DNA of 62,856 nucleotides from contig CAYHGA010000004.1 in assembly GCA_964356225.1 (NCBI GenBank), positions 1-62,856 of the forward strand. Direction: 5' to 3'. A program made the position numbers and the translations under genes. The stretch comes from an uncultured Gammaproteobacteria bacterium. Its GTDB lineage: Bacteria; Patescibacteriota; Microgenomatia; CAZETR01; Amesbacteraceae. Within the stretch, counting starts at the first letter, position 1. Each line of letters starts with the position of its first letter. The notes beneath the pieces were generated by a model. That model did no database searches. It was given only the letters and a program-made list of their open reading frames with translations, and was not told where the DNA came from. Below, piece after piece: positions 7,874 to 60,369 of this stretch.

Positions 7874-7877
7874 TTAG

Positions 7878-8672
7878 TTACTTCCCCATCCTTCTTTGAT
7901 AACTCAAGAAATCTTTTATGTTTTCTAACAATACCTCTGGCGTCAAATCTGGAAACAGTTCCGATGTAAATTTCCAACCTGAATATACAGTCTGCAGTGG
8001 CATAAAGCCGCTAGTTCTGGGAATCTCGTCTTCTGTCATGCCCGTTCTGATCACCAAATCTGGTGCAGGTTGACTGGTAGTATCCAAAAAACCCAATATT
8101 ACGCCAGGATTTGTGATGAGGTCAATCTTAGAAAGTTTGCCCACTTTCACCCACTCTAGAATTTTGGCAATACCGCGGGCCGCCTCGTCCAATCCTCCAT
8201 AATCTAAAGCTAAATTCACATACCACCTATCGAATCCTGACGTTCTCGATTCCAATTTATCTATAGACTCCTTTACTTTAAATGGAATTCTGTCTTTTCT
8301 GCCGATATGAGTGAATTTCACCTGATTTTCTACCAATTCCTGCATTGTTCTTTCGTCCTGTAAATATCTAGTTGCCAAATTCATTACAAAATCTACTTGC
8401 TCACTTTCTCTTTTCCAATTTTCCGTAGACCATGTCCAAAAAGTCAGATATTTAATTCCCCATTGCCTACCCGCTTCCATAATACCCTTAATAACTTCTA
8501 CGCCCACTCGATGTCCCATCCAAGGGTCTAATCTTCTCGATTTAGCTCCACGTCTATTGCCGTCACAAATTATTGCCAAATGACTAAAATCCTGCTGATC
8601 AACTCGAAAGTTCGGGATTACTTTCCAGGTGTTATCTACCTGCTTTAGCCATTCATGCACTTCAACTGCCAT
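7878..8672 (-). CDS. uppS: Cis-prenyltransferase / undecaprenyl diphosphate synthase
   Basis: HLAIICDGNRR, GHRVG, TFWTWSTENWKR, PDLVIRT and RTSGF motifs. Confidence 0.93.
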   Translation of the reverse strand: MAVEVHEWLKQVDNTWKVIPNFRVDQQDFSHLAIICDGNRRGAKSRRLDPWMGHRVGVEVIKGIMEAGRQWGIKYLTFWTWSTENWKRESEQVDFVMNLATRYLQDERTMQELVENQVKFTHIGRKDRIPFKVKESIDKLESRTSGFDRWYVNLALDYGGLDEAARGIAKILEWVKVGKLSKIDLITNPGVILGFLDTTSQPAPDLVIRTGMTEDEIPRTSGFMPLQTVYSGWKFTSELFPDLTPEVLLENIKDFLSYQRRMGK

Positions 8673-8674
8673 AC

Positions 8675-10698: not shown

Positions 10699-11871
10699 AT
10701 GCTGACTAGACACTTAGATCGAGCCCTGTCGGAGCATTTGGGAAAGTATAAGGAAGTGTTAGTTTTGTTGGGGGCCCGGCAGGTGGGGAAAACTACCATT
10801 ATCAAAAGGATTTTTCCAGAAGCGCAGTACTTGATTGCCGATAATGAGCCTATCAAAAACGCACTTGAACGCTATGACCCAGTTATTTATAAGCAGTTAT
10901 TAAATACCGGCGATAGTTTAGTGGTGATCGACGAAATTCAGAAGTTGAGCGACCCGGGAAGAGCGGCAAAAATATTTTTTGATCAATTGCCCGAATACAG
11001 ACTAATCATTACCGGTTCTTCCGCCTTTAATATCAAGAATAAAGCATCTGAAAGTTTGGCAGGTAGAAAGGTGGACTATCACCTTTATCCATTGTCGCTT
11101 TCTGAATATTTGGTTCAGAAAGGACTTGAGAGCGCGTTATCTTTGATTCCTCTGGAAAGACTAATCAGGGGAGAAAAAGCAAAAGAGGTGATTAGACCTT
11201 ATGACCATAAGGAAATATTAAATAATGTTTTAGTCTACGGATTATATCCGGCCATGCAGTCTCATCCCAGCGATTCGGCTTATCTGACCAATTTAATTGA
11301 TAGTGTGGTATTTAAAGATTTGGTTGAGCTGTCGTTATTGGAAAATAAGCCGGCTGCCCTATCACTTTTGAAATTACTAGCGCATCAAATTGGTTCCCTG
11401 GTTAATTATGCGGAATTGTCATCTAAATTGGGAGTAGGGGCCAGAACTGTAAAAAGATACATCGAGCTATTTGAGCAGAGTTTTATTATTTTTACCATCA
11501 GGCCTTATTCGTCAAGGAAACGGGATGAAATTGCAAAAATGCCAAAGGTCTTTTTCTATGATTTGGGATTAAGAAATGCGTTAATAAATAATTTTGAACA
11601 CATAAGCGCCCGGGGAGACGCGGGTCAGCTCTTTGAGAATTTTATTGTGACCGAGCTACTTAAATATAATTATTATGGAAATTTTGGCTATAGCCTTAAT
11701 TACTGGCGAACTAAGGGTGGTTCGGAAGTGGATTTGGTGTTGAGCAAGCCGGGTCACGATACTATAGCAGTAGAGATAAAAAGTAAGCAGCAAAGAATTA
11801 ATCGGTCTTTCCTTTCCCGATATCCTGGATCTAGAATGGCGATTATTTCCAGAGATAATTATTGGGTTTAA
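10699..11871 (+). CDS. AAA_14/DUF4143 ATP-binding protein
   Basis: GARQVGKT, IDEIQK, TGSS, KVFFYDLGLRN, GQLFENF and YWRTKGGSEVD motifs. Confidence 0.88.
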   Translation: MLTRHLDRALSEHLGKYKEVLVLLGARQVGKTTIIKRIFPEAQYLIADNEPIKNALERYDPVIYKQLLNTGDSLVVIDEIQKLSDPGRAAKIFFDQLPEYRLIITGSSAFNIKNKASESLAGRKVDYHLYPLSLSEYLVQKGLESALSLIPLERLIRGEKAKEVIRPYDHKEILNNVLVYGLYPAMQSHPSDSAYLTNLIDSVVFKDLVELSLLENKPAALSLLKLLAHQIGSLVNYAELSSKLGVGARTVKRYIELFEQSFIIFTIRPYSSRKRDEIAKMPKVFFYDLGLRNALINNFEHISARGDAGQLFENFIVTELLKYNYYGNFGYSLNYWRTKGGSEVDLVLSKPGHDTIAVEIKSKQQRINRSFLSRYPGSRMAIISRDNYWV

Positions 11872-14903: not shown

Positions 14904-14932
14904 TTGACAAAGTAACGGAAATAGCGTATATT
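14904..14932 (+). promoter_or_regulatory. sigma70 promoter
   Basis: TTGACA-N17-TATATT, 7 nt before the ATG at 14940. Confidence 0.7.
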
Positions 14933-14939
14933 GGGACAT

Positions 14940-16103
14940 ATGAAGATCATAAGAGTGCTTGAACAGCAAATTTCTCAACGGCTAGACCAGTCAAACAAGG
15001 GAATAGTGATTTATGGTCCACGGCAGGCGGGAAAGACGACTTTGGTGAATGATCTTCTCTTGCAAAAAAGCTGGAGGACGTTGGTCGTAAATGGAGACCG
15101 CAGGGGAGAGTGGTGGGACATGCTTGTGAGTCGGGATCTAGCACAGTTTAAGGTTTTATTGGGCGGATATCGGGCTATATTTGTAGATGAAGCACAAAGA
15201 ATTCCAGAGATAGGATTGATTTTGAAGATAATATTGGATGAATTCCCAAATATGAAAGTAATAGTTACGGGGTCATCGTCTTTGGATTTGGCCAGTAAAG
15301 TGAGTGAACCATTAACCGGAAGAGTGACTACCTATAGACTTTACCAGATTTCTATAGCAGAGCTGGCAGGGATTTATACCGGATACGAATTAAGAGAGAG
15401 TCTAAATGAGAGGTTGATTTTTGGATCTTATCCGGAAATTTTTTCGTTGCACGGAGCTGAAGCCAAAGCAGATTATTTGCGCAACTTGACAGACTCTTAT
15501 TTGTATAGGGATTTGCTAGAGTTTGGGGGAATAAGGAATTCCAGTAAAATTAGGGATTTGCTAAAGCTTTTGGCTTTCCAGATAGGGTCTCAGGTGTCTT
15601 TGACGGAACTGGCAAATACTTTGGAATTAAGCCGGATGACAGTAGAAAGATATATAGATTTATTGGAGAAATCGTTTGTAGTATTTAGATTGTCGGGATT
15701 AAGCCGTAATCTGCGCAAAGAAGTTTCCAAAATGGATAAAATTTATTTTTACGATGTGGGGGTGAGAAATACTGTAATCGGAAATCTGAATTCTTTGCAG
15801 AGCCGGGACGACGCGGGCCGGTTGTGGGAGAATTTTTTGATGATAGAGAGGAAAAAACGCTTGGAGTATGAAGGAACGTTGTACGCTCATTATTTTTGGC
15901 GGTTAACTACCGGGGCAGAACTTGATTTGGTAGAGGAGACGGGGGGTAAATTAACGGGGTTTGAATTCAAATACTCTCAAAAAATTGTTAAAGCACCTCA
16001 GTCTTGGGCAAAGATATATCCAGGGTCAGAGTTCAAAACTATCAACCGCCAAAATTATCTGGATTTTGTACAGTTGGAAAAAGCCATGGATATGTTAAAA
16101 TAG
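14940..16103 (+). CDS. AAA_14/DUF4143 ATP-binding protein (second copy)
   Basis: [32 protein letters not shown] and GRLWENF motifs. Confidence 0.88.
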
Positions 16104-19324: not shown

Positions 19325-20035
19325 TTATACTAGACTCTCCAAATGACTTGGATTTTGTTTATCCAACAGCTTTCTTTTTATAAGTTTGGCCTTTATTTTT
19401 TCAATTCTACTCTTTGCGATCACTCCTGAAAAGATCATTCCTGCAATAGGGGCTAGCGCGTCGGCTATTTGAACATCGGGGTCTAAATTAGTTTTTTTGA
19501 CAAAACTGATAGAAGTAACACTATTTCTGTAATTTTGATTCTGCGACTGTAGACCGGCGTGGGCTTCCATAAGGAAAAGATCTTGAGACGGGTCGGATTC
19601 GGCAACAATTTTTCCTTTTGATTGGTCCTTCGTCAAATTGGTTAAGAAAAGTTCTGCGAGTCTAAAATACGATTTTTTAAGAATTGTTTTAGGCAGCCAC
19701 CCTTGTTTCTTGGCCTTTTGCTTATCAGCAATAACAAAAATCAATGAGATTTCAGTGTTGTTTAAAATGCTTATAAATTCAGACCAAAATAGAGTTTCCT
19801 TTTTGGGATCACGTAATAACGAAAACTGTCCCTTTTTCCTGAACATGTCCCTACTGTGAAATACTATATCTTCGTCTTTAAAAAACTTCATTTTTAGTTT
19901 TCTAATCTTTATATCAAGCTTAGGTTTAAACTTTTCAGTGATTAAGACAGCCGAAAGGACAAACAGTTTTGAAGCATGATCAAAAGAAGCTTTTCCACTT
20001 TCGTCAATTGAAAGAACCTTATATTTATTTAGCAT
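19325..20035 (-). CDS. DUF3800 domain protein (RNase H-like fold)
   Basis: IDESG, FVLSAV, VFHSRD and VQIADALA motifs. Confidence 0.8.
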   Translation of the reverse strand: MLNKYKVLSIDESGKASFDHASKLFVLSAVLITEKFKPKLDIKIRKLKMKFFKDEDIVFHSRDMFRKKGQFSLLRDPKKETLFWSEFISILNNTEISLIFVIADKQKAKKQGWLPKTILKKSYFRLAELFLTNLTKDQSKGKIVAESDPSQDLFLMEAHAGLQSQNQNYRNSVTSISFVKKTNLDPDVQIADALAPIAGMIFSGVIAKSRIEKIKAKLIKRKLLDKQNPSHLESLV

Positions 20036-20036
20036 A

Positions 20037-20093
20037 TTAAAGTTTCTGGGGCAAAAAATCCCGAAAGCCCTTGAGAGTCTGAATTTTATTCAT
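20037..20093 (-). pseudogene. Duplicated hisS 5' fragment (MNKIQTLKGFRDFLPQKL*)
   Basis: 18-codon ORF matching the hisS N-terminus MSNTIQTLKGFRDFLPQT; its ATG overlaps the HAD stop codon (ATGA). Confidence 0.85.
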
Positions 20094-20461
20094 ATGATAT
20101 TTAATAAATCACGAATATTAATAAAGTTAATTCCAGCATCCTTAGCCATTCTAGCATCATTTACTGTATCCCCGATATAAACAATTATTTCTTTACAGTT
20201 TAAAATTCTGAACAATCTTGGATCAGGTTTCCTCAACCGGGTGTCATCTTTAGTCACAACCATATCTACGGGAAATAATTTTATTACCCCAATCTTTTTG
20301 AGTATATTTAACGTTTCTGTTCGTTTAGCTCCGGTAATAATTGCAAAACAATAAACTTTAGATAATTTTAAAAGTATTTTTTTAGACAATAATAGTCTAG
20401 CCGGTCTCATGCTAGCTAAAGTTCCGGATAGATCAAAAACTATGTATTTATTATTTTTCAT
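20090..20461 (-). CDS. Small HAD-family hydrolase (motif I DLSGT, no cap domain)
   Basis: IVFDLSGT, IITG, KPDP and YIGDTVND motifs. Confidence 0.75.
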   Translation of the reverse strand: MKNNKYIVFDLSGTLASMRPARLLLSKKILLKLSKVYCFAIITGAKRTETLNILKKIGVIKLFPVDMVVTKDDTRLRKPDPRLFRILNCKEIIVYIGDTVNDARMAKDAGINFINIRDLLNII

Positions 20462-21677
20462 ACAGCAATAGGAACACAGTTGTAATCTTTATCACTAATA
20501 ATTATCTCCTCAGATAGTGAAGCCATTGTTCCTGCGATTTTACCTCCTACAATCCAGACGTTAAATTTACATTTTGGTGATTTGAGTAATTTTGGTTTGT
20601 TTGACGAAGTGTCAAAAGCCCATATCGAAGGAAGACCCAATCCGCGGAGTTGGCTAAAGCGACTTTTTTTGATGAAAAACTATCACCCTTGAGAAGAAAA
20701 TCTTGCGGGGGAGAACCTCTTGTGAATGGGTAGGTTACGGCAAAAAGGTTTGGTTGTTGTGCATAGGCAGAAACTAATAAAGATTTCTCTTCATATTTCG
20801 GACACCAAGTAGGGAAAACAGACCCCGGTGATCTTTGTCTTAATAAGGTTATTAAATCTGTTATACCAGGATTTATCATTCGCGGATCTCCGTCAACATA
20901 TAGAAGCGGAAAAGTTTTTATGTAATCAGGGCGATATTTTTGTGGATCTAAGAGTTCAACATAATTAAACAATTTTCTTTGAACCAGAACTTTAGCCATA
21001 AATTCCAAAGAAGCTCTCTCCCCAGTTTCCTTTGAGCCTCTGGCCGAGTTTATGAAGATTATCCCAAGTTTGGAATATTTCCCAGTATCAAAAAATTTAG
21101 CTAAAGTTTCAAGCGGTTTGTATGTTCCGCCATTTATTGTATTGAGACTGTCTAGTATTCCAAAGGCGTCGACCCATTGCGTATTTACCTCTATAATTTT
21201 TGGTCCATCTCTTCCTATGACGATATCAACTCGTGCGCCATTTGGTTTTTGAATTTCTGAGGTTGGAATATTTTTTAATACTTCAAAACCATCAAGTGCC
21301 GTCCTCTCAATTTGTTTTAGTTGTTCTCGCTTTAGTTTTAAAGGATCTAATATAAAGTTGACCGCTTTTTCTCCGTATGTACCCCCGGTTTGTTCAAGTT
21401 GCAATTGCATTCTCAGAGATTTTGCAGCCAAGTTGGCTGCTTCTGTTGTCGTTGCTCCAAACTTTTTAAACAGCTGCGATCTTCTTTGAAATTCATTTTT
21501 TGTATCAGATCTTATTTCTCTCACCAATGATGTTGATCTTGCTAATCCTCTTTGAGATTTTTCAAGTTCTGAAGGTTTTTTAATAAAGCTAGTTGCTTCG
21601 CCTAAAGCAGCACGATAAATCATGCCCAATTGTTGAGCACTCGTAGACTGTTCAATTAGTAAGTCTAATTCTTTCAT
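20458..21677 (-). pseudogene. ATP-grasp-like protein with apparent frameshift near 20640
   Basis: 376-aa ORF (RVDIVIGRDGPKIIEVNTQW) whose plausible C-terminus (KCKFNVWIVGGKIAG...ISD) continues in another frame, 20640..20458, coupled to the HAD start. Confidence 0.5.
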
Positions 21678-21679
21678 AG

Positions 21680-21751
21680 GGTGGGTGAGGGGAGTTGAAC
21701 CCCCGTTTTCAGCTCCACAAGCTGACGTGCTGCCGTTGCACTACACCCACC
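21680..21751 (-). tRNA. tRNA-His(GUG), with genomic G-1 and discriminator C73; CCA not encoded
   Basis: Acceptor stem GTGGGTG/CACCCAC, D stem GTGC/GCAC, anticodon arm TCAGC-TTGTGGA-GCTGA, T loop TTCAACT. Confidence 0.95.
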
Positions 21752-34866: not shown

Positions 34867-35559
34867 TTATTCATCATCCATATCGATTGCGGCTTCATAG
34901 ATAAATTGGGCGTCTATGGACATCCCCAGAAAATTAAAGTAAGAATTTTGGGGCTTATTTTTTGAAAAATAGCTAAGAATATAATCCTTTTTTATCCAGT
35001 CTGTATTTCGGTTTCCTAGATATTCAGGAAGAGAAGAAGGGAAGACAGATTCTTTCCAGCGACCCGGTGAAAGATGGAGAGCCTTAGTGGGATTAAGGTG
35101 AATGTAACGAGAGAGATGTAGCAGTTGTTCGTCTGATTCTATTAGAACGGCCTTGTAAACATCTTGGAATAAAACTCCCTTGCGTTTATATTTGCGATTA
35201 AAATACATGGCATATCTCGTACCTAGAGAGTTTGTAAAATTATTTATGACAATACCCTTTTGTCTTATGAGAAGATGGAAATGATTTGGTAATAAAGCAT
35301 AACAAAGTAACTCCAAATCATTGGAATAATTTTTCAATCTTAGCAGTTTGAGGGCTTTATCTTTTGGAGATGACTCATCAGAATTAAGAATTATTTGGAG
35401 TGCTTTTTCATCCTTGGGTGTAAGATAGGTTTGTAAGTAAGAAAGAAACACCGAGTAGTCTTGCTCATCTTGAAAAATTATTCTCTTTTCAACTCCACGG
35501 TTGTAAATATGGTAGTAAGAATTGGGGACGTATATTTTAGTTGAGTTTTTGGAGGCCAT
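34867..35559 (-). mobile_element. REP-associated tyrosine transposase (RAYT / IS200-like Y1 HUH)
   Basis: YYHIYNRG, YALLPNHFHLL (HUH), LFQDVYK and SRYIHLNP (catalytic Tyr); probable ATG at 35559. Confidence 0.88.
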
Positions 35560-35587
35560 TATTAAACGATATATGGTTTGATGTAAC

Positions 35588-35610
35588 TTTGCAAGAGGTC
35601 CTCTTGCAAA
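35588..35610. repeat. REP-like perfect palindrome, 5' of the RAYT gene
   Basis: TTTGCAAGAG-GTC-CTCTTGCAAA (10-bp stem, 3-nt loop). Confidence 0.85.
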
Positions 35611-35630
35611 TGGCGAAGTAGCGAGATCTA

Positions 35631-36275
35631 TTATAAAGTGCCGAGAAAGGTTGTGATTTCGTCGGCGACGGAGGTGGTGAAATGACGGTGGACCTGGGTG
35701 GTGGGAATCCACTTAAGTTGTTTGAAATCTCTACCGGGTTTTTGGACACCGTTAAGTAATTTGCAATGATAATAAAGAGCTACAATTCTGATTTTTTTCT
35801 CCGGAGAATCCGGGATAAGGCGGGCGTGAATCAGTCGGACAGGCTTAATATTCAGTCCTGTTTCCTCTTTTACTGTTTTCACCAAGGTGTTTTCAAAGTC
35901 TAGAGTATCTGCTTTTCCAGAGGGAAACGTCCAATGTAAATCTTCGACGTTTTGATCAGGAGACTTACGTAATCCGATAATTACACTATTTTTTTTGCTA
36001 ACAATTCCTATTACAACCACGATAGTGGGTTTGGATTTGGTTTGGGATAGAAGAGAATAATAAAGTTTAAGAATTTTATTGGCATCAGAATCATCAATTA
36101 TTTCAGTCTCCCCCACTTTTTTGGCTGAAGGTTTTTGAGAATTAATAAAAAATTCGATCATTTCTCGGAGCATTTCCGAGCGAGATCGGTGAAACTTGAG
36201 TTGCAAGTTATTAAGTATCTTTAGAGTTTCGCTTGGCAGAGAAAAGGCTGTAATCTGGCTTTTTCGTTTTGACAT
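35631..36275 (-). CDS. Ribbon-helix-helix + Nudix fusion protein
   Basis: ITAFSLPSETLKILNNL....RSRSEMLREMI (RHH); WTFPSGK...VKEETGL (degenerate Nudix box). Confidence 0.75.
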   Translation of the reverse strand: MSKRKSQITAFSLPSETLKILNNLQLKFHRSRSEMLREMIEFFINSQKPSAKKVGETEIIDDSDANKILKLYYSLLSQTKSKPTIVVVIGIVSKKNSVIIGLRKSPDQNVEDLHWTFPSGKADTLDFENTLVKTVKEETGLNIKPVRLIHARLIPDSPEKKIRIVALYYHCKLLNGVQKPGRDFKQLKWIPTTQVHRHFTTSVADEITTFLGTL

Positions 36276-36283
36276 TTATACAA

Positions 36284-36311
36284 ATTATAACAATTTTATA
36301 ACTTTCGTCAA
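36284..36311 (-). promoter_or_regulatory. sigma70 promoter with GTTATAA direct repeat (possible RHH operator)
   Basis: TTGACG-N16-TATAAT, 8 nt before the ATG; GTTATAA-AATT-GTTATAA overlaps the spacer and -10. Confidence 0.55.
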
Positions 36312-36431
36312 GTTATTGTTGAAAAATTTAGATTTTTTATTTGATAAGCACGAAATTAGGTAAATGAGGCTCTAACTCGGAATTAAATACTATTGACATG
36401 GATTTATATATTCTGCATGCTTTTGTTAGTA

Positions 36432-37385
36432 ATGAAAACAATTTGCGTTTTATTCAATAAACCGGAAAATATTTTTGACGAATCTGACTTGGACACGCAA
36501 AAATCTGCGGTGAGCATCGGAAGAGAATTAAGCGGAGTTGGTTATGATGTGCAGATTTTAGGAATTTCTCTTGATGAAATTGAAGAAGTGCGAAAAATTA
36601 AAGCGGATATCGTTTTTAATTTGGTGGAATGGACGGGAAAAAATATTGTCCAGGGAGTGAAAGTCATAAAGACGTTGGAAAAAATGCGGATACCTTTTGT
36701 GGGATCAGGAAGTTCCGGATTTTTATTGTCGTCAAATAAAGTGCTGATGAAAAAAGAGATGAAGAAAAATAATATCCGCACTCCCGAATTAAAATTCCCG
36801 GCAATTGTAAAACCTGCTTATGAACATTGTGGAATTGGCATTACGCAGAAGAGCATTGTTTATGACAGCAAAGAGTTGAGAGTTATGAGTTATGAGTTAA
36901 GAAAGAAATATAATCAACCCGTAATAGCTGAAGAGTTTATTGATGGGCGGGAATTGCAGGTGACAATTTTGGAGAAAAACGGCCGGCCGTGGGTGTTGCC
37001 GGCGGCGGAAGTGGTTTTCGACAAACCAAGAGCTGTTTTGTCTTATGAAATGAAGTGGGTGGAAAAATCGCCGGAGTATAGTGAGTCTCACATGGAAGCG
37101 GCTGACTTAAGTTCAAAACTCAAAACTCAAATTTCAAAACTGGCCCAAAAATGCTATTTAAAATTAGGAGGGAGGGATTATCCCCGACTGGATTTGCGGG
37201 TACGGGGCGGGGAAATATATGTGCTGGAGATTAACAATAATCCTGGGTTGGACTGGGATTTGGATTCGGGCATGGGAGTGTCGGCGCGGCTGGCCGGATT
37301 TAAAACTTACGGAGAATTGCTCACACATATAGTGGAAAACGCTTATTCCCGATTTGTAAGTAAACATGACGCCAGTTTCCTTTGA
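36432..37385 (+). CDS. D-Ala-D-Ala ligase-like ATP-grasp protein A
   Basis: VFNLVE, IVKPAYEHCGIGI, EEFIDGRE, RLDLR and LEINNNPGL motifs. Confidence 0.85.
   Translation: MKTICVLFNKPENIFDESDLDTQKSAVSIGRELSGVGYDVQILGISLDEIEEVRKIKADIVFNLVEWTGKNIVQGVKVIKTLEKMRIPFVGSGSSGFLLSSNKVLMKKEMKKNNIRTPELKFPAIVKPAYEHCGIGITQKSIVYDSKELRVMSYELRKKYNQPVIAEEFIDGRELQVTILEKNGRPWVLPAAEVVFDKPRAVLSYEMKWVEKSPEYSESHMEAADLSSKLKTQISKLAQKCYLKLGGRDYPRLDLRVRGGEIYVLEINNNPGLDWDLDSGMGVSARLAGFKTYGELLTHIVENAYSRFVSKHDASFL
36873..36900 (+). repeat. Heptamer tandem repeat inside ATP-grasp A
   Basis: gagttga gagttat gagttat gagttaa; encodes ELRVMSYELR. Confidence 0.8.
37113..37140 (+). repeat. Heptamer tandem repeat inside ATP-grasp A
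   Basis: tcaaaac tcaaaac tcaaatt tcaaaac; same unit as 704..731. Confidence 0.8.
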
Positions 37386-38424
37386 TTACCCGATCAGCGT
37401 TGCCATTTTGTATTATGGAGGCGAAGCCGAGGATTTGAAGGACGCAGAGAATGCGGCCCGGGGGCTGGCGGAAGCTTTGGAAGAGCGGGGGCACATGGTA
37501 AGGCTGATGCAGGTAACGAAAAAGAATTGGCGCAAGGCAGTGAGACTGCCCGGACAGGTAGTATTTAATTTCGTGGAGGATGAAACATGGGAACTGTACA
37601 CCAAAGTGGGATTGCGGCTGGAAGCACTGGGGCGGGCGCAAATGGGCCATGATATGCGCTGTTTTAAATATATAACTAAAAAAGCCCGAGTGAAAAGAAA
37701 GATGAGACGCTGGGGAATTGCGACGGCGGATTTCAGAATTTTTAACCGCCGGTCAAAAATTTCTCAGGTGCGGGGATTGGAATATCCGTTGATGGTGAAG
37801 CCTTCGGGGCAACATGCCGGAATCGGTATTTCCCAGGATTCGGTGGTAATTGATCAGGACGAGCTCAAAGAGCGAGTCAAATTCTTGTTTAAACATTTTC
37901 CGGGCGAAGTGATAGCTGAAGAATTTATAGAGGGTCGGGAGATTCATGTGACGGTTATCGGTAATGGGAGAAAAGCGGTAGTACTCCCCTATTGCGAAAT
38001 CTTCTTTGGCGGAGAGTTTGCGGATAATTGGGATGTATATACATATGAAGCCAAGTGGGATGAAAAATCATGGGAATATTGGGGGGCGCGGGCGCATGCA
38101 CCGGCCAAGATGGACCGGAAATTGAACAGGCGGATTGAGAGGCTAACCCTGGCGGCTTACCGGGTTTTTGGCTGCCGGGATGTAGCCCGGATGGATATGC
38201 GGGTGGATACGCGGGGACGGGCTTATATTGTGGATATAAATATGAATCCTAGCCTGAATTATTACGACACCCAGGACGCGACTGTAAAGTCGGTGGAAGC
38301 ACAAGGATGGACGTACGGCGAGTTTATAGAGACACTAGTAGCCATTACTTATAAGAGAGTGTACGGACGATTGCCAGACCGGGTGCGGGAAAGGCAGTTT
38401 TTGCTGGCAGCGCCGCAGATTTAA
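37366..38424 (+). CDS. D-Ala-D-Ala ligase-like ATP-grasp protein B
   Basis: VFNFVE, MVKPSGQHAGIGI, EEFIEGRE, YTYEAKW, RMDMR and DINMNPSL motifs. Confidence 0.85.
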   Translation: MTPVSFDYPISVAILYYGGEAEDLKDAENAARGLAEALEERGHMVRLMQVTKKNWRKAVRLPGQVVFNFVEDETWELYTKVGLRLEALGRAQMGHDMRCFKYITKKARVKRKMRRWGIATADFRIFNRRSKISQVRGLEYPLMVKPSGQHAGIGISQDSVVIDQDELKERVKFLFKHFPGEVIAEEFIEGREIHVTVIGNGRKAVVLPYCEIFFGGEFADNWDVYTYEAKWDEKSWEYWGARAHAPAKMDRKLNRRIERLTLAAYRVFGCRDVARMDMRVDTRGRAYIVDINMNPSLNYYDTQDATVKSVEAQGWTYGEFIETLVAITYKRVYGRLPDRVRERQFLLAAPQI

Positions 38425-38993
38425 GCTAAGAAGAGCTTAGCGGTGGAGATTTTGAATTGGGGCAGGTGTTTAGGGTCTTTGGCCAAGACAAACATCAGGC
38501 GGTTGTTCCAGCTTTTGATGAGTTTACCGCTGCGTCTTTTGAATTCAAAATCACACCAGCGGCAGAGAAAATCTTTCCAGTCATATGATTTTTTAGTGCC
38601 GGTAGAGGAGTCAAAGAGAACGATGCGCCGGTTGCTGGCTGAATAGGAGGCTACGGCTGCGTAGTGGCCGGATTCTTCATGGGGACTGAAATCGGCTTTG
38701 AGGTCGTAGAGGTAGTCGACGATAACGGCCCGGGGCTTGAGAGATTGGTGTTTGAGGGCGTTTTGGAGGTGAGTGAGAGTGGTCCATTCGACTGCCAAAA
38801 CTGAAACGCCCAAGCTATTGGCAGCGCGAATTAGTTTTGCGGGAGAGGTGCCGTTGCGGTTGGTTTTGCACAACTTGATCAAATCCCCTAGTGATTTGCG
38901 CATACCCAAAATTTCCAGAGCGGTTTTGAGAGAGGTTGGACCACAAGTGCGGTCGTCGGGTTGGAGGTGTGTTTTAGCCTTGCTTCTGCCCAT
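38421..38993 (-). CDS. Stand-alone C39-family cysteine peptidase
   Basis: Q...TCGPTSL, GHY and FDSS catalytic set. Confidence 0.8.
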   Translation of the reverse strand: MGRSKAKTHLQPDDRTCGPTSLKTALEILGMRKSLGDLIKLCKTNRNGTSPAKLIRAANSLGVSVLAVEWTTLTHLQNALKHQSLKPRAVIVDYLYDLKADFSPHEESGHYAAVASYSASNRRIVLFDSSTGTKKSYDWKDFLCRWCDFEFKRRSGKLIKSWNNRLMFVLAKDPKHLPQFKISTAKLFLA

Positions 38994-44656: not shown

Positions 44657-46588
<1,932 letters not shown>

Positions 46589-46763
46589 TTACCAACTTGT
46601 GAGCTTCACATCAAGGCCAAAAACGTACTCCTCTCCTGTATCCCCTCCCCTAAATACAATGGCTACGCTGGAGGGAAGGGGAACGAAAAAAGGTGAAAGA
46701 CTGCATGATCGTCGAACCTTAACTAATTATATTTAATCAGTACTTTGTGGCTACAGGTTATAA

Positions 46764-47657
46764 TTGATACAAATGCTAGATTTCGATAACATAAGCGTTG
46801 TTTTTATAACCCTTGACTCTTGCACTCTTGAGACTGCCCTAAAAGCTCAGACTACTAATCTAAATAAAATATCGCCCACCCTTGAGGGGGAAGCAAACTC
46901 TACATTTACTTATCCGGCTCATTATGCATTTTTTGCTGGCCATCTACCTAGACTCGTAAGCGAACGATATTATTTTGAGAGTTACACAAATATCTGGCGA
47001 TCAACTTTGGCTAGTGAACATAGTAATGAAACAATGTTAACTTTTGATACTAAAAACATAATAGATTATTATACAAATCTTGGTTTTAACGTTCGAGGTT
47101 ACGGCGGGGTGAGTTTCTTTGATACTTATAAGCGGAACAACAGTTTGCCTACTCTGTTTAGCAACTTTAGGTACTTTGGCTTGGAAAAAAATCCTCCTAT
47201 TAATGAAAGAGTACCAAGATTAGCATCATCTTTTCCGTTGAACAATATCAATGAAATACTTAATGACATCAACATTAATAAACCATTTTTTATTTTTATT
47301 AATTCTATTGCTACTCATATCCCATACGACACACCAGATTCTGTTTTACCAAAAGATTACTCAAACCTTGTTTCACGATTATACAAGGAGCACTATTCAA
47401 AACAAAGGCATCAATCGAACAAAATTCCCTTTTCTAAAGTTGAAGTGGAAATTTTTAAGAAACGTCAGGTGGAAGCACTAGAATGGGCGGACACTAAAAT
47501 TGGACTACTAATAAATGGGCTTCCTAAAAATAGACCAGTGCTTTTTCTGGCGTGTTCAGATCACGGCGAAGAGTTCGGCGAGGGTGGCCGGTTCGGTCAT
47601 GCACACTACCACCCAACAGTTATGAAAGTTCCACTTTGGTGTGGTTTAGTTAAATAA
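46764..47657 (+). CDS. Alkaline phosphatase/sulfatase-superfamily hydrolase (STM4013-like)
   Basis: FITLDS, TFTYPAHYAFFAG, GGVSFF, THIPY and SDHGEEFGEGGRFGH motifs. Confidence 0.8.
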   Translation: MIQMLDFDNISVVFITLDSCTLETALKAQTTNLNKISPTLEGEANSTFTYPAHYAFFAGHLPRLVSERYYFESYTNIWRSTLASEHSNETMLTFDTKNIIDYYTNLGFNVRGYGGVSFFDTYKRNNSLPTLFSNFRYFGLEKNPPINERVPRLASSFPLNNINEILNDININKPFFIFINSIATHIPYDTPDSVLPKDYSNLVSRLYKEHYSKQRHQSNKIPFSKVEVEIFKKRQVEALEWADTKIGLLINGLPKNRPVLFLACSDHGEEFGEGGRFGHAHYHPTVMKVPLWCGLVK

Positions 47658-47791
47658 CCTTTCCTTCGAAATATGACTATAGGACTATGTTATAATAATG
47701 TACATATATGAACGCACCTATAGCAAAATTGGTTGATCGTACTTTAAGATCGATTATGTTTCAACACTGAACGTGATATAAAACAAGCAAT

Positions 47792-49039
47792 ATGAGTACT
47801 AAAATTAAATTAATACAAACAATAAAGTCTCCTGATAATGACCCCATTGAGATTGTGGAAAGAAAAGGGTTAGGCCACCCAGATACGTTAGCTGATGGAA
47901 TTGCAGAATCTATTTCCATAGAATTTTCTAAGTTCACTCTAAAAAAATATGGCGCAATTCTCAATCATTGGGTAGATAAGGTTTTAATTACAGGTGCGCA
48001 AGGAGAAATCGATTTTGGTAAGGGAGTCCTAAGGAGTAAAATTCAGATTTACATATTCGGAAAAATGTCTAAGTCGTTCGCTGGAGAAAATATAGATATT
48101 AAACCTATTTGCAAAAAAGCAATAATAAATTTCCTTAGCGAAGCATTACCAACTCTAAACCTCGAACGAGACGTTCAAATAAATTTCACACAAAATGACT
48201 ATTCCAAAAACCCATATTGGATGAATCCGAGAAACCTAGGCGACCTGCCTAATAGAACAGATCCTAGATCAAATGATAGTTCCGTCTCGATCGCATATTG
48301 GCCCCTATCAAAAATGGAGCGGTTAGTTCTTGAAATCGAAAAATATTTTTACGATTTTAAACTAAGACCGAGATTTAGATATATAGGACAAGATATAAAA
48401 ATTCTACTCGTTAGGAATGATTGGAAAGTTGACATCACCTTATGTGTACCGTTTATTGCAAATGACTGTCCGAGTGAAGCCTTTTATTTAAGAAAAATGT
48501 CTGAAATAAAATTTGGTTTAATAAATAAAACCGAATCCTTTTTAGGAAGTAAGTACAAAACGCATATTGATATAAACAACGCGGATAAAATGCCTAAATT
48601 AAAGAGAACAAAAAGAAAGGGATACTATATGTTAGTGTCGGGAAGTTCTTTAGACGATGGAGAAGTGGGAGTTGTAGGGAGAGGTAATCCTGCAACAGGG
48701 GTAATCTCATCATATCGAATCCATAGCGTTGAAGCGCCTTATGGGAAAAATCCCGTGTACCACGCTGGTAAGGTCTATCACTATTTATCACAAAAAATTG
48801 CACGAAAAGTATCCAATTTATATAACGCTAATACCACAGTGATAATTGCAAGCAAGATGGGAGACAAAATTATAAACCCTGCAAATATAATAATCGAGAT
48901 CAACAAGAAGTTTGATAAACAAAAGGTTAAAGAATTGGTCTTAGATGTGTTAAGAGGTTCTGACTGGGCACGCGAGATTATTACAAGTAGATATTTTATT
49001 CCTAAACCTGGTGGTGCAGATAATTATGGAGGGACTTGA
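47792..49039 (+). CDS. Archaeal-type S-adenosylmethionine synthetase
   Basis: IEIVERKGLGHPDTLAD, NDSS, GQDIK, VGRGN and EAPYGKNPVYHAGK motifs. Confidence 0.88.
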   Translation: MSTKIKLIQTIKSPDNDPIEIVERKGLGHPDTLADGIAESISIEFSKFTLKKYGAILNHWVDKVLITGAQGEIDFGKGVLRSKIQIYIFGKMSKSFAGENIDIKPICKKAIINFLSEALPTLNLERDVQINFTQNDYSKNPYWMNPRNLGDLPNRTDPRSNDSSVSIAYWPLSKMERLVLEIEKYFYDFKLRPRFRYIGQDIKILLVRNDWKVDITLCVPFIANDCPSEAFYLRKMSEIKFGLINKTESFLGSKYKTHIDINNADKMPKLKRTKRKGYYMLVSGSSLDDGEVGVVGRGNPATGVISSYRIHSVEAPYGKNPVYHAGKVYHYLSQKIARKVSNLYNANTTVIIASKMGDKIINPANIIIEINKKFDKQKVKELVLDVLRGSDWAREIITSRYFIPKPGGADNYGGT

Positions 49040-50453
49040 AAAAGAAGCCAGAATCGCAACAAGAGTCGCTGTGTCGCCAACTAATAAAGACATGAAACTA
49101 GGCGCATACAGAACGTGCGCTTACTCTTATTTAATCGCTTTAGCAAGTAAAAATAAAGGAGAAGACTCATTTTGCGTTTTACGTTGTGATGATTCTGACC
49201 CAGTAAAACATAAAAAAGAAAACTTTGTGTCTTTACAAAATGTTTTTACTAACGAAATGGGTATGGCTTTTGAAGCCACTCCTCAAGATGAGCAAGTAGG
49301 ATTGGTTAAATTTATTCAAGCAAAAAAGCTTCCAACGAATGAATTTTTATCGACTTCGCGCGCGACGTCTCTCTACCAATCTGAAAGAACATTAATTTAC
49401 CAACATTTTGTGGAGAAACTTTTGTCGAATGGGCTTGCATTAAAAGGAGGCGACGGGTCGATCCTTTTCGATGTAAGACAATATATAGAGTTATTTGGAT
49501 CACAAATTGTCCTATCAGATCTTGTTTGGGGTAAAAGAGCTATAGATTTAATCAAGTTAACAGATTTTGGTTCTATTAGCAGGAAAAATGACAACTCCAA
49601 ATTTTATTTAATTTTTCCGAATGGACGTGTGCTTTTCCATCTTGCAGCTGTTGTCGATGACCACACGTGGGGAATTACACACATTGTTAGAGGAGTCGAT
49701 TTAAAGCCTGCACAATTATACCAGGACATGTTAAGAAGGGCGTTAGGTTTTGGTGATGTAGATTATATATATACTCCAATGCTAAAAGGTGACACCTCAA
49801 CTAGATATTTTGAATTAATTAAACACGGTTTTCCTGCCGGAGCTCTTATTTCATATATGATTTCTTCAGGTTATGATGATCCGGATAGGTTATATTCTGG
49901 GCTTGATGAAGCGGCCAATGGTTTTGATCTAACCAAAATCCATCGTTCAAATTCTGATTTTAGTATAGGAAAATTAGAATCAATAACCAAAAAACTCGCA
50001 AATAAAGACTCGGTTGATCCAAAGCGCACTCGAAGTTCTTTAGTTAGATACTTCAAGATTTTGGGTGAGGATCAGTTAGCCGAAGAAATATCAAACAATA
50101 TTCCTTTCTGGAATTTAATACATAATGAAAGAAGAACTCTTGCTGAACTTGCAGATTATGTAAAACGAACGGTGTCGCCTAATTATACAACTGAAAATGG
50201 CATTATCTTAGCAAGAATTAGGGAATTGTGTAAAACCCTAGTTATCAAAGCTGAAAACTTGACTACTGACAACCCAGGGAATTTTGTCACCGAGTTAAAT
50301 TTGCCCAAGGAAGACATTTCTTTTATCAGGTGGATACTTCTTGGCAGAATGAGTGGTATTAATCCAATTTATGCATTACAATACTTGGTTGAGAAGGGGT
50401 TGTTGAAGACAAGGGTGGATGCTTGTGTTAATTATATAGATAGTGTAAAATGA
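49011..50453 (+). CDS. Divergent glutamyl-tRNA synthetase-like protein (HIGH and KMSKS motifs degenerate)
   Basis: TRVAVSPT, LRCDDSD, YQSER, HLAAVVDD..WGITHIVRG; HIGH position reads MKLG; no KLSKR. Confidence 0.8.
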   Translation: MVQIIMEGLEKEARIATRVAVSPTNKDMKLGAYRTCAYSYLIALASKNKGEDSFCVLRCDDSDPVKHKKENFVSLQNVFTNEMGMAFEATPQDEQVGLVKFIQAKKLPTNEFLSTSRATSLYQSERTLIYQHFVEKLLSNGLALKGGDGSILFDVRQYIELFGSQIVLSDLVWGKRAIDLIKLTDFGSISRKNDNSKFYLIFPNGRVLFHLAAVVDDHTWGITHIVRGVDLKPAQLYQDMLRRALGFGDVDYIYTPMLKGDTSTRYFELIKHGFPAGALISYMISSGYDDPDRLYSGLDEAANGFDLTKIHRSNSDFSIGKLESITKKLANKDSVDPKRTRSSLVRYFKILGEDQLAEEISNNIPFWNLIHNERRTLAELADYVKRTVSPNYTTENGIILARIRELCKTLVIKAENLTTDNPGNFVTELNLPKEDISFIRWILLGRMSGINPIYALQYLVEKGLLKTRVDACVNYIDSVK

Positions 50454-51064
50454 TATCTAAATTATTTAATAAAAATAAGAATAGGTGTATGGAAAGGGCA
50501 AAGTATTTTTTACATGGTGGAGCAACAGGAAAAGATACGGAAAGAAATCACGTTTTTTTTCGTGAGATAATAGATAGTGTTGGAAATAAACCGATAAATA
50601 TTTTGCTTATCTACTTTGCGAGAGCAGAGGGTGTTTGGAGATCTCTTTTTGAAGAAGACATGAAAAAGTTCACAGAAGCCTCGTTTCGAAGAGGCTTACA
50701 CAATATCGAGGTAGGCGATATTAACGTCGGTATTCTTTCTGATCAGATTAAAGAGGCAAACATTATTTTTATAAGAGGAGGAGATACTGACAAATTACGT
50801 AGAAAAATGGACGAAGTTGCCAATCTTGAAGATCTTTTACAGGGCAAAGTGATAGCAGGTTCATCTGCAGGAGCTTACATATTAAGCAGCTACTATTATG
50901 CAAATAGCAAGAACGAAATTAAACAGGGGATGGGGATACTTCCCATTAAAATCTTCGCACATTATTCAGATGATCAAATAGATAATTTCAGAAAGTTGGA
51001 AATGTTTGGACCTGACATGCCGGTTTTGAAAATTGAAGAAGCCGACTTTGAAGTTTATACATAA
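50450..51064 (+). CDS. Peptidase S51 (dipeptidase E / cyanophycinase-like)
   Basis: LHGG, IRGGDT, IAGSSAGA and FAHY motifs. Confidence 0.85.
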   Translation: MISKLFNKNKNRCMERAKYFLHGGATGKDTERNHVFFREIIDSVGNKPINILLIYFARAEGVWRSLFEEDMKKFTEASFRRGLHNIEVGDINVGILSDQIKEANIIFIRGGDTDKLRRKMDEVANLEDLLQGKVIAGSSAGAYILSSYYYANSKNEIKQGMGILPIKIFAHYSDDQIDNFRKLEMFGPDMPVLKIEEADFEVYT

Positions 51065-51109: not shown

Positions 51110-51706
51110 TTACAGGTTTGTGGCTAAGTGAGAGAGGCAGAGTTTGAGGTTGCAGTTGGCTTTAAGATACCTGCGGGTATCGGTTATGAGTTCATAGTTG
51201 ATAGTTGGTGGTAGACCGGATGAGATTTGCTGATGCAACAGATATTCCAGATTGTCGAGGAAGGCGAGGGCGGATTCACGGGTGAATTCTTGGTCTTCGA
51301 GAATTTTTAACCTGTCCCCTACCCCGGCGGGCTGGAGTTTTTTAAGAAGATTGGTCGCGTGGGACAAATCTTGGGTGCTAGGTGCTAGGTGCTGGGGGCT
51401 AGGTACAATTTGGACCCGGGATAAAATGGTGGGGAGGAGAGAGTAAGGAGACGAAGTGACTAAGTAGATTAAGGAGCCCCCGGGCGGTTCTTCGAGAGTT
51501 TTGAGGAGGGCGTGCTGGGCAGGTAAAGTAAGTAAGTGGGCCTGGTGAATAATTACGGTGTTGTGGTCAGATTGGATGGGTTTTCTGGAGAGAAAGAATT
51601 GGATCTGACGGACTGCGTCGATGCCAATGGAGGGGTCGGGCACGATATGAAGTGTGTCAGGCCCTTCGGCAAGCTCAGGGTTAACTGTTGTTAAGAATGC
51701 ATGCAT
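51110..51706 (-). CDS. holB: DNA polymerase III delta' subunit-like
   Basis: IGIDAVR, IHQAHLLT..AQHALLKTLEEPP and LLPTILSR motifs. Confidence 0.82.
   Translation of the reverse strand: MHAFLTTVNPELAEGPDTLHIVPDPSIGIDAVRQIQFFLSRKPIQSDHNTVIIHQAHLLTLPAQHALLKTLEEPPGGSLIYLVTSSPYSLLPTILSRVQIVPSPQHLAPSTQDLSHATNLLKKLQPAGVGDRLKILEDQEFTRESALAFLDNLEYLLHQQISSGLPPTINYELITDTRRYLKANCNLKLCLSHLATNL
51182..51209 (+). repeat. Heptamer tandem repeat inside holB
   Basis: ggttatg agttcat agttgat agttggt; encodes PTINYELIT. Confidence 0.65.
51373..51400 (+). repeat. Heptamer tandem repeat inside holB
   Basis: gggtgct aggtgct aggtgct gggggct; encodes PQHLAPSTQ. Confidence 0.75.
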
Positions 51707-58981: not shown

Positions 58982-59686
58982 TTGATGAAACCGGGACAAG
59001 CATTGATAGCGGTGTTGCTGATTTTGGCGGTGATTATGACGGTGTCGTTGTCGATTGCCTCCAGGTCAGCCACAGAAGTAAGCGTATCAACGGCGCAGGA
59101 GGAAGCGGCGCGGGCGCTGGCCGCGGCGGAAGCCGGAGTGGAGGCGAAATTGGGAGGAATAACTACCGGGAGTGGGCAGGTGGGGACCAGTGGTTCGACT
59201 TATACGGTGGAGTTGACAGATTTCGGGGCAGTGAGTACCTCGTTTGTCCTGCCCCAACTGTTGGCGTCCGGCGAATCGGTGAGTGTGAATTTGACAGGGT
59301 ATGGAGCGAATAGTATTGGAGTATGTTGGAACGGGGGAGGAGATTTGGAGACTGCCTTTTATTATGGAAATCCTGTGGCGGTGACGAGAGATTATTTTAC
59401 TACTCCCGCTGGAAATTGTCTCGGGTATAGTGGTTACAATTTCCGGACGGTAGTCTTGGGTGGATCACCGGAACTGTTTTTAAGGTTAAAATTGTTGAAA
59501 AATGCTACAAATGGTCAATTGGTTATTATACCTGCTCCCAATTCTGGTTTACCGAAACAAGGAGATACGATTACGGCTGTGGGGCAGGCGGGAGAATCGG
59601 TGCGCAAGGTAGAAGTTAATAAACAGGACGAGATACCGGATATATTTGAAGCGGCTTTATTTTCCGGAGGAAGTTTAAGCAAGTAA
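58982..59686 (+). CDS. Minor pilin (PilX-like)
   Basis: PG/QALIAVLLIL (no E5); A.AAAEAGVE. Confidence 0.8.
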   Translation: MMKPGQALIAVLLILAVIMTVSLSIASRSATEVSVSTAQEEAARALAAAEAGVEAKLGGITTGSGQVGTSGSTYTVELTDFGAVSTSFVLPQLLASGESVSVNLTGYGANSIGVCWNGGGDLETAFYYGNPVAVTRDYFTTPAGNCLGYSGYNFRTVVLGGSPELFLRLKLLKNATNGQLVIIPAPNSGLPKQGDTITAVGQAGESVRKVEVNKQDEIPDIFEAALFSGGSLSK

Positions 59687-59983
59687 TTGGCCGAAACGGC
59701 GGATTTCGGCAGCCAGTGGATCGTAGGGATTGTCGATATCATTTATTCCGAAGGGGAGGGCTTCGATACGATCATCTACGCGTCGAGATATTTGACGCAA
59801 TTTAACCATTTCGTCAATTAAGTCTTTTCCGAAGTTAGGAGAAACTACACAAATATCTATGTCGCTATATGATTTAGCCTTTCCTTTGGCGTATGATCCA
59901 TATAAATAGGCTTTACTAACCGGAATTCCCACAATGACCAATTCGTCAATGAACTTTTTGCCGATAGAAATAGGGTCAGTCAT
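59675..59983 (-). CDS. Minimal nucleotidyltransferase (MNT) antitoxin
   Basis: YLYGSYAKG...SDIDICVVS. Confidence 0.9.
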   Translation of the reverse strand: MTDPISIGKKFIDELVIVGIPVSKAYLYGSYAKGKAKSYSDIDICVVSPNFGKDLIDEMVKLRQISRRVDDRIEALPFGINDIDNPYDPLAAEIRRFGQLLA

Positions 59984-60369
59984 GGTAATAATCCCAGATA
60001 CTTATCAAATAATTTTTCCCCGGATTCCATCCAGGTTTTGGTGTATTTCGGCGTGGCCTTTTGATGAAGTTTTAATTTAAAGATGTCGTATCTGGCCGCT
60101 ATATTGAATGTAGAAATTTCATCCAGCTCGAGTTTTTCTGATTCAGATGCCTCAATTCCTGCCTTGGTGGCCAATTTGTACAGATCATGAATAAATAACG
60201 AAGGTTCATGCTTAAGATGTTGGTGGACTCCTTTGATAATTTTTTCTATGGCTAAATGGAGAAAAAACAGGGCATGGGCATATTTACCTTGTTTGAATAG
60301 ATCTTCGCCGAGTTTTATATCTTCAATTGCACTTGATTTCCATGCCTGCACGGCGTCCAGTTCTGTCAT
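59980..60369 (-). CDS. HEPN domain protein
   Basis: ALFFLHLAIEKIIKG, HDLYKL and ARY motifs; ATG at 60369; coupled to the MNT gene. Confidence 0.88.
   Translation of the reverse strand: MTELDAVQAWKSSAIEDIKLGEDLFKQGKYAHALFFLHLAIEKIIKGVHQHLKHEPSLFIHDLYKLATKAGIEASESEKLELDEISTFNIAARYDIFKLKLHQKATPKYTKTWMESGEKLFDKYLGLLP

Follow-up and report, generated by a model that had tools for sequence, protein, structure and literature searches.

In the 62.9-kb contig CAYHGA010000004.1, the whole stretch of which was analysed and is referred to as the window, a block of four plus-strand open reading frames (ORFs) at 46.7-51.06 kb, between gyrB and a holB-like gene, is very probably a horizontally acquired, conserved and uncharacterised cassette, the two main enzymes of which are neofunctionalised paralogues. 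The core of this cassette is a translationally coupled pair, consisting of a methionine adenosyltransferase (MAT) paralogue and a glutamyl-tRNA synthetase (GluRS) paralogue, together with an alkaline-phosphatase (AP)-superfamily phosphoesterase and an S51 peptidase. We propose, with a probability of roughly 45%, that the cassette serves to build, and to keep under control, a glutamylated adenosine derivative that mimics glutamyl-adenylate, via adenosylation by the MAT paralogue, a Glu-tRNA-dependent step carried out by the GluRS paralogue, and reversal by the S51 peptidase.

The original prediction, made from the sequence alone, had described a compositionally distinct block between gyrB and holB, with its last three genes overlapping and no mobility gene inside, and this description was borne out. 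The GC content was 35.7% for the block vs 47.0% for the remainder of the window, with sharp edges at ~46.6 kb and ~51.1 kb, the drop from ~0.55 to ~0.40 occurring over 46.4-46.8 kb. Since further low-GC islands were present in the window (~5-12, 19-22 and 35-37 kb), the block is distinct, not unique. If the GluRS-like gene starts at ATG 49026, it overlaps the MAT gene by 14 nt, and with a start at GTG 49011 by 29 nt; the GluRS-like and S51 genes overlap by 4 nt, unless the latter starts at ATG 50489, which would leave a 35-nt gap instead. The block contained no mobility gene, and no convincing flanking repeat or att site was found. Scanning for promoters and terminators gave matches no commoner than in shuffled sequence and no promoter was assigned; the cassette promoter is presumably located in the divergent intergenic region downstream of which the AP gene starts (46577..46763). 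An apparent 739-bp deletion in the AP-like gene of L004, a low-coverage assembly of the same population, turned out to be a 100-N scaffold gap (4600-4699).

Co-occurrence of the four genes in other genomes, which had been named as a check on the original prediction, was observed, contrary to the outcome that would have refuted it (no co-occurrence elsewhere and unrelated phylogenetic origins). Contigs were traced for the most closely related MATs (55-60% identity) and for several members of the GluRS-paralogue family (GLX), and the four families were mapped over every locus with local hidden Markov models. The full set was present in the window and in three distantly related loci besides (L009, L017/L018 and L019), partial sets were present in five further loci (L007, L008, L015, L016 and L020), and the MAT and GLX pair was also found in L007, L008, L015 and L020/21. 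MAT stood next to GLX in the window and in 7/9 informative related loci, being its most constant partner, and the two genes shared a start/stop overlap in the window, L009, L019 and L020. Protein identity between loci was 21-60%, and the MAT and GLX similarities co-varied across loci (Spearman rho 0.63). Horizontal transfer is suggested by the GC contrast together with the integrases found on both sides of L007 and adjoining L015. The cassette is real, old and mobile. It was also noticed that in L009, on an AT-rich contig, a short (661-aa) alanyl-tRNA synthetase (AlaRS) gene (191-2176) lies immediately upstream of the cassette.

Assemblies of Hainich H52 groundwater, size fractions 0.1 and 0.2 µm, were the sole source of identical copies of the block. 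In the GTDB representative genomes, the GLX pattern gave no match and the MAT pattern gave only two lone, distant MAT-like genes (L010 and L011) without the cassette, and scanning of the JGI metagenomes gave one partial match. At pattern sensitivity, the cassette was not found in IMG/VR viral contigs, where neither MAT, AP or S51 partners nor a MAT with the Asn-His-Trp (NHW) signature described below were seen; the 30 matches all scored in the range of canonical GluRS, and both a HIGH-type motif and KMSKS were retained in the five inspected ones, which were the highest or otherwise representative in score. Searching PADLOC v2 gave no match for three of the proteins and only chance-level matches for S51 (E >= 0.001), and literature keyword searches (PF01941; STM4013; combined MAT/GluRS cluster) retrieved no description of the cassette.

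The MAT paralogue matched PF01941, the archaeal-type AdoMet synthase family (4.1e-83, 279.9 bits, residues 13-381), and was alignable end to end with the archaeal MATs 6S81, 4L4Q and 7P82 (E ~1e-50; 4e-51). Residue roles were taken from TkMAT, in which His62 and Asn64, located on a loop, are ligands of the methionine alpha-carboxylate (PMC3853416). The window MAT retains the catalytic His29 (TkMAT His33), the ribose-binding Asp201, K203, the adenine-stacking Y279 (TkMAT Tyr271) and R297, and TkMAT Asn161 and the GRGN motif are also kept; H29, D201 and Y279 were present in 9/9 cluster-linked MATs. At the positions of TkMAT His62, Asn64 and Asp284 (the acidic residue following Asp283), however, the window protein has N58, W60 and V292. 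Comparison of the 9 cluster-linked MATs with 114 other (stand-alone) bacterial PF01941 proteins revealed that 1) the His62 position was Asn in 9/9 cluster-linked copies vs His in 111/114 others, 2) the Asn64 position was Trp, Ser or Tyr in 9/9 vs Asn or His in 113/114, and 3) the Asp284 equivalent was Val, Ile, Tyr or Ser in 9/9 vs Glu in 114/114, with the catalytic positions identical in both sets. The NHW signature itself was present in 6/9 cluster-linked copies. The same ligands were replaced even in copies only 28-36% identical to the window MAT. Taken together, this pattern points to a change of substrate, not decay. Judging from these residues, adenosyl transfer from ATP is very likely retained by the MAT paralogue, and the acceptor would be something other than free L-methionine. 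Thus, the protein is probably not the dedicated S-adenosylmethionine (SAM) synthetase that had been predicted, as no cluster-linked copy has kept the methionine-carboxylate ligands; with these replaced, the puzzle of a missing SAM consumer may not arise.

Three MAT genes lacking cassette partners were also recorded. The lone MAT-like gene of L010, a Bdellovibrionales metagenome-assembled genome (MAG), at 7914-9239 carries the NHW signature with a Cys at the Asp284 position; this protein and that of L011 (a Kofleriaceae MAG) are 30-33% identical to the cassette MAT. In L013 (1242-3694), a stand-alone bacterial MAT of the canonical PF01941 type (HHH motif) directly follows a sugar C-methyltransferase-like gene, an example of dedicated SAM supply, unlike the cassette MAT.

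The GluRS paralogue matched PF00749, tRNA-synt_1c (1.1e-13, 51.2 bits), and scored 92.9 bits against the GluRS model TIGR00464 (cutoff 289.95) and 53.8 bits against the GluQRS model TIGR03838 (cutoff 276.7). Apart from the protein itself and canonical GluRS, word-index protein searching with GLX and its family profile retrieved a single other family member (P0185). With exhaustive HMMER searching, 28 family representatives (50% identity level) were detected at E<1e-30, and ~50 ranked above the first canonical GluRS. HMMER alignment to solved GluRS structures placed 'MKLGA' opposite 'LHLGG' (HIGH) and 'KGDTSTRY' opposite 'KGKLSKRD' (KMSKS). Across 39 full-length family members, the HIGH histidine was found in none (0/39), the position being mostly Arg or Lys, and the KMSKS columns were gapped or unrelated. 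As the glutamate pocket of Thermus thermophilus GluRS, we take residues Arg5, Ser9, Glu41 and Arg205 in the numbering assumed here. The Arg5 position was R in 32 and K in 4 members, Arg205 was kept in 37/39, Ser9 was mostly Ser or Thr, and the Asn191 position was Ser, Thr or Ala; the Glu41 position was Asp in 39/39 and that of Trp209 was Lys in 33/39. An AlphaFold2 model based on the family alignment (pLDDT 90.7) had as its top 42 PDB structure matches full-length bacterial GluRS exclusively (TM 0.65-0.77), the anticodon-binding domain included, and GluQRS and other class I enzymes gave far lower scores. A C-terminal R-W-x-L-x-G motif is common to the paralogue and bacterial GluRS. According to the alignments and the model, the GluRS paralogue retains the predicted tRNA-binding architecture and a putative pocket for an acidic side chain, and has lost the activation motifs that grip the ATP phosphates. 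With HIGH and KMSKS missing, activation of glutamate with ATP by this protein is unlikely.

The first gene encodes an AP-superfamily protein with a match to Pfam Sulfatase (PF00884, 4.8e-10), for which the nearest NCBIfam model was STM4013 (NF038075; 108.7 bits, below the cutoff of 250). Invariant in five orthologues were D18-S-C, T49-x-P51-x-H53 and D266-H-G...H279-A-H281, the C-terminal motif reading D-H-G-x-E-F-G-E-G-G-R-x-G-H-A-H. The segment T49-Y-P-A-H53 stands opposite the sulfatase motif C-x-P-x-R (C-A-P-A-R in choline sulfatase). In phosphoryl-transfer members of the AP superfamily, Thr is the nucleophile. Since T-x-P-x-H aligned to the sulfatase motif, the nucleophile is predicted to be Thr and the enzyme to be of the phosphoesterase type, not a sulfatase. 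A sulfatase identity was rejected, the formylglycine motif C/S-x-P-x-R being absent. No radical-SAM or ATP-grasp gene accompanying the STM4013-like gene was found in the window.

The last gene product matched PF03575, Peptidase_S51 (1.1e-12, 48.5 bits), scoring 23.8 against PepE (cutoff 156) and 18.6 against cyanophycinase (cutoff 126.6). The Ser (G-x-S-A-G), the His (HY) and the C-terminal Glu were kept in five orthologues, and the Ser region was alignable to Lmo0363 (3L4E). We propose that it is a PepE/cyanophycinase-like hydrolase of an acidic aminoacyl-X bond. For all four proteins, NCBIfam gave the same families as Pfam, yet every equivalog score fell below the cutoff (for the MAT, the best model was NF003362, 365.5 bits vs 481). 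The earlier labels of SAM synthetase, GluRS-like protein and peptidase E therefore stand at the family level and fail as equivalogs.

The neighbourhoods provide clues to the kind of product. In L022 (7279-18249), a biosynthetic-looking region contains an AsnA-like class II ligase, GLX, an S66 MccF-like peptidase, a methyltransferase and a 403-aa protein of unassigned family, facing two MFS genes, between which a canonical GluRS lies, and a dapdiamide-synthase-like ATP-grasp enzyme. The overlap of the S66 gene with the stop codon of GLX is precisely that seen for S51 in the window; the gene is a non-homologous replacement of S51 at the equivalent position. The canonical GluRS of L022 is intact (HIGH and KLSKR present). 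Canonical GluRS adjoins cassette genes in both L015 and L022, the two copies being 32% identical. By a rough estimate, a given housekeeping gene would lie within a few genes of a locus ~0.2% of the time; against this expectation, GluRS beside 2/10 loci is unlikely to be due to chance. Recurring accessories are P-loop nucleoside/nucleotide kinases (adenylylsulfate (APS)-kinase-like, dTMP-kinase-like and others), glycosyltransferases, and PHP proteins resembling 3',5'-nucleoside-bisphosphate phosphatases. The accessory PHP proteins are 25% identical to each other and the kinases have no mutual similarity; kinases and PHP proteins were thus rejected as core parts, not being homologous between loci.

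By analogy with known systems, the following route is possible. The MAT paralogue would transfer the 5'-deoxyadenosyl group of ATP to a nucleophile other than free L-methionine, giving a 5'-modified adenosine. The GluRS paralogue, unable to make Glu-AMP, would bind this adenosine derivative in its AMP site and move glutamate onto it from Glu-tRNA(Glu), as AcmF does in ascamycin synthesis, so that the product would be a phosphate-free glutamyl-adenylate mimic aimed at GluRS. The S51 peptidase may strip the acidic aminoacyl group for self-protection or maturation, comparable to AcmE, and to MccF in microcin C. The AP-type enzyme would add or remove a protecting group, phosphate (or sugar), on the ribose, a role that the variable P-loop kinases, PHP proteins and glycosyltransferases at other loci might share. 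That the MAT product is handed directly to the coupled, ATP-independent GluRS paralogue, which would make the mobile cassette a previously unknown two-enzyme route, is a more specific idea that we regard as doubtful. The precedents are the ascamycin enzymes and MccF. AcmF is AlaRS-like, lacks the residues for ATP binding and activation, and uses Ala-tRNA to place alanine on the sulfamoyl-adenosine core; the tRNA is charged by AcmD, a resistant AlaRS encoded in the cluster, and AcmE hydrolyses the alanyl group (PMC12945691). MccF (S66) cleaves the aspartyl-nucleotide amide of microcin C and thereby confers self-immunity; an extra synthetase copy is frequent among producers of synthetase inhibitors (PMC8323819).

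Several points weigh against a glutamylated adenosine as the product. The cassette in the window has neither an exporter nor an adjacent canonical GluRS, and a GluRS copy was seen in only 2/9 informative related loci, its status as a second copy being putative. The acm, nuc and mcc enzymes are not homologous to any of the four proteins; the resemblance is one of logic only. As MAT is missing from L016 and L022, partners other than MAT are possible for the GluRS paralogue, and the accessory kinases and PHP proteins are heterogeneous between loci. Product, substrate and activity are all putative, and a producer role would be unusual for a presumed small-genome groundwater bacterium, probably one of the Patescibacteria.

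Other explanations were weighed against the same evidence. The GluRS paralogue might be directed at tRNA, binding tRNA(Glu/Gln/Asp) and modifying or repairing it with SAM or a SAM analogue made by the MAT as donor, with the phosphoesterase and kinases healing RNA ends and S51 deacylating. Retention of the full GluRS fold with its anticodon-binding domain is consistent with this, as are the precedent of GluQRS, a GluRS paralogue that modifies tRNA, and the recurrence nearby of P-loop kinases and of PHP (RNase RNM-like) or AP phosphoesterases; however, GluQRS has the ATP motifs that the GLX family lacks, neither an RNA ligase nor a methyltransferase belongs to the core, homology is lacking among the kinases of different loci, and a small molecule is suggested by the S66/S51 peptidases, the MFS pumps and the additional GluRS of L022/L015, for which reasons we consider it unlikely. 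Unlikely, too, is a MAT that still makes SAM beside a non-catalytic GluRS paralogue acting as MAT regulator, or as a decoy soaking up a Glu-AMP-like inhibitor. Pseudo-enzymes do typically show losses like that of HIGH and KMSKS, the translational coupling hints that the MAT and GluRS paralogues form a complex, and the NHW-type MAT-like gene of L010 occurs without a partner. Against this, the active site of the GLX family displays new invariant features rather than decay (the Asp, the Lys and the kept arginines described above), and in each of the nine cluster-linked MATs it is exactly the methionine ligands that have changed.

A role in resistance only, with an aminoacyl-adenylate mimic from outside being cleaved by the peptidase, degraded by the phosphoesterase and sequestered by the GluRS paralogue, was given a low probability. 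The S51 and S66 peptidases at equivalent positions, the immunity conferred by MccF-type enzymes as stand-alone genes, the mobility of the cassette and the lack of an exporter in the window would all agree with it, but the most constant partner is an ATP-dependent adenosyl transferase with no obvious detoxifying role, and L020 and L022 look biosynthetic (carrier protein, phosphopantetheinyl transferase (PPTase), AsnA-like ligase, ATP-grasp enzyme, methyltransferase). Of the detoxification module for an aminoacyl-adenylate mimic that the original prediction had considered, the mimic theme is thus supported by the context in L022 and L015 (GLX with an S66 MccF-like peptidase, MFS pumps and canonical GluRS), whereas pure detoxification is less likely because a biosynthetic-type adenosyl transferase belongs to the core. 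It is also improbable that the cassette is an anti-phage or inter-genome conflict system making a nucleotide-derived signal or toxin upon infection. Its low-GC island, its integrase neighbourhoods, an adenosine-modifying chemistry that recalls nucleotide-based defence systems and a weak similarity of the L017 kinase to the MADS6 kinase would fit such a system; no credible PADLOC match was obtained for any of the four proteins, no sensor or effector (nuclease, TIR, pore protein) was seen, and the IMG/VR result given above also argues against it. That ordinary housekeeping genes (SAM synthetase, GluRS, dipeptidase and phosphatase) happen to lie side by side is essentially excluded. PF01941 MATs are common in Patescibacteria-like bacteria and no second MAT or GluRS, i.e. 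no canonical metK or gltX, occurs within the 62.9-kb window, but synteny is kept across loci only 21-60% identical, the defining motifs are lost in both paralogues, all equivalog scores are below cutoff and the composition is foreign-looking.

Coordinates of the features in the window and gene orders at the related loci are listed in Table 1.

Table 1. Features of the cassette region in the window and arrangement of cassette genes at each locus (GLX, GluRS paralogue; AP, alkaline-phosphatase-superfamily protein; GT, glycosyltransferase)
Locus	Feature or gene order	Position	Strand	Remarks
Window	gyrB	44657-46576	minus	left flank
Window	intergenic gyrB / first cassette gene (divergent)	46577..46763		GC drop starts here
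Window	AP-superfamily hydrolase/transferase (sulfatase-like / STM4013-like)	46764-47657	+	297 aa; alternative ATG 46773
Window	archaeal-type MAT paralogue	47792-49039	+	415 aa
Window	GluRS paralogue	49026-50453	+	475 aa from ATG; 480 aa from GTG 49011
Window	S51-family serine peptidase	50450-51064	+	204 aa; 191 aa from likely alternative internal ATG 50489
Window	DNA_pol3_delta2, holB-like	51110-51706	minus	right flank
Window	AP-MAT-GLX-S51			
L009	AlaRS-MAT-GLX-S51-AP			AP truncated by contig end
L017/L018	MAT-GLX-AP-S51-PHP-kinase			GCA_021779255.1
L019	MAT-GLX-AP-S51			
L007	APS-kinase-like, AP, MAT, GLX			GLX frameshifted; integrase on either side
L008	MAT-GLX-GT2-S51			
L015	P-loop, MAT, GLX, AP			then canonical GluRS, two integrases
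L016	P-loop, GT1, S51, GLX			
L020/21	catalase/peroxidase fragment, HprK-like, MAT, GLX, dTMP-kinase-like			carrier protein and PPTase nearby
L022	AsnA-like, GLX, S66 peptidase, methyltransferase			opposite: MFS, canonical GluRS, MFS, ATP-grasp

Elsewhere in the window, several other features were observed. On the minus strand, a low-GC block (5795-9778; 36-40% GC) carries an isoprenoid set comprising two NUDIX genes, an amino-acid-kinase-family protein (possibly isopentenyl-phosphate kinase), an undecaprenyl-diphosphate synthase and a polyprenyl synthetase. A low-GC stretch at 19325-21750 (34-38% GC), encoding a DUF3800 protein and a 376-aa ORF without a family match, directly adjoins tRNA-His (21679-21750) and looks like an island inserted at the tRNA gene. 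Low GC was also found at 34867-38993, where an IS200-like Y1 transposase, a ribbon-helix-helix/NUDIX fusion, a C39 peptidase and two tandem D-Ala-D-Ala-ligase-like ATP-grasp genes are located. Paralogous AAA_14/DUF4143 ATPase genes lie at 10699-11871 and 14931-16103, less than 5 kb apart, and adjacent NTP_transf_2 nucleotidyltransferase and HEPN genes on the minus strand at ~59675-60369 (from L001 20650-21344) have the usual HEPN/MNT toxin-antitoxin arrangement.

To our knowledge, MAT enzymes have so far been known almost only as SAM synthetases, and the proposed route, if true, would add a new substrate class or reaction to the MAT superfamily. The GLX family (~50 representatives at 50% identity) would then consist of tRNA-dependent transferases, the principle of AcmF and SbzA would be extended to class I GluRS, and the GluRS paralogue would be the first class I, full-length tRNA-dependent 'reverse synthetase'. 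New antimetabolites directed at GluRS might also be obtained from the cassette, as might enzymes with which to make aminoacyl-nucleosides, and very small groundwater bacteria would be seen to gain compact modules of chemical warfare or self-protection by horizontal transfer. Regardless of the mechanism, replacement by Asn of the first His in the HHN motif of a MAT, combined with a GluRS lacking HIGH and KMSKS, provides an annotation signature for genes that are now annotated as 'methionine adenosyltransferase' and 'glutamyl-tRNA synthetase'.

Compared with known enzymes, each cassette protein combines a familiar fold with altered functional positions. The MAT paralogue shares with the archaeal-type MATs (PF01941; TkMAT 4L4Q and PfMAT 6S81) the fold family, catalytic His, ribose Asp, adenine Tyr and GRGN, but cassette copies lack His62, Asn64 and the acidic residue after Asp283 and score below the equivalog cutoff. 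The GluRS paralogue resembles bacterial GluRS in its Rossmann catalytic domain, glutamate-pocket arginines and whole architecture including the anticodon-binding domain, and differs from it in the missing HIGH and KMSKS and in the changes of Glu41 to Asp and Trp209 to Lys. GluQRS (YadB) is a truncated GluRS of ~300 aa that has no anticodon domain and keeps the ATP motifs; the Rossmann catalytic domain and glutamate-pocket arginines are in common, whereas the paralogue is 475-480 aa long with a C-terminal domain and has no ATP motifs. With the STM4013/SEN3800 family and the type I sulfatases, the AP protein shares the AP-superfamily core, the N-terminal metal-binding Asp and the C-terminal DHG...H; it differs from the former by a score below cutoff and the lack of radical-SAM partner genes, and from the latter by its nucleophile motif T-x-P-x-H. 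MccF (S66), PepE and cyanophycinase (S51) are, like the cassette S51, Ser-His-Glu hydrolases acting on an acidic aminoacyl-X amide, the cassette substrate being putative; the fold of MccF is unrelated to that of the cassette S51, which in turn scores far below both the PepE and cyanophycinase cutoffs.

At the level of the whole system, the closest parallel is ascamycin of Streptomyces sp. 80H647, in which a synthetase fold without activation residues likewise keeps its tRNA-recognition parts; the GluRS paralogue would correspond to AcmF, the canonical GluRS of L015/L022 to AcmD, and S51 or S66 to AcmE. There is, however, no sequence homology, AcmF being a truncated class II, AlaRS-like protein and the cassette protein a full-length class I, GluRS-like one. 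Sulfamoyl-adenosine chemistry, as in ascamycin and nucleocidin, was considered because of the 'sulfatase' and the APS-kinase-like neighbours, and was not adopted: there is no sulfatase motif, nor was a sulfotransferase or a sulfate-adenylyltransferase found. In both of those systems, the nucleoside core is made via 3'-phosphoadenosine 5'-phosphosulfate (PAPS) and sulfotransferases, whereas the cassette has a MAT paralogue and an AP-type enzyme instead, a putative nucleoside-forming part that has no described counterpart.

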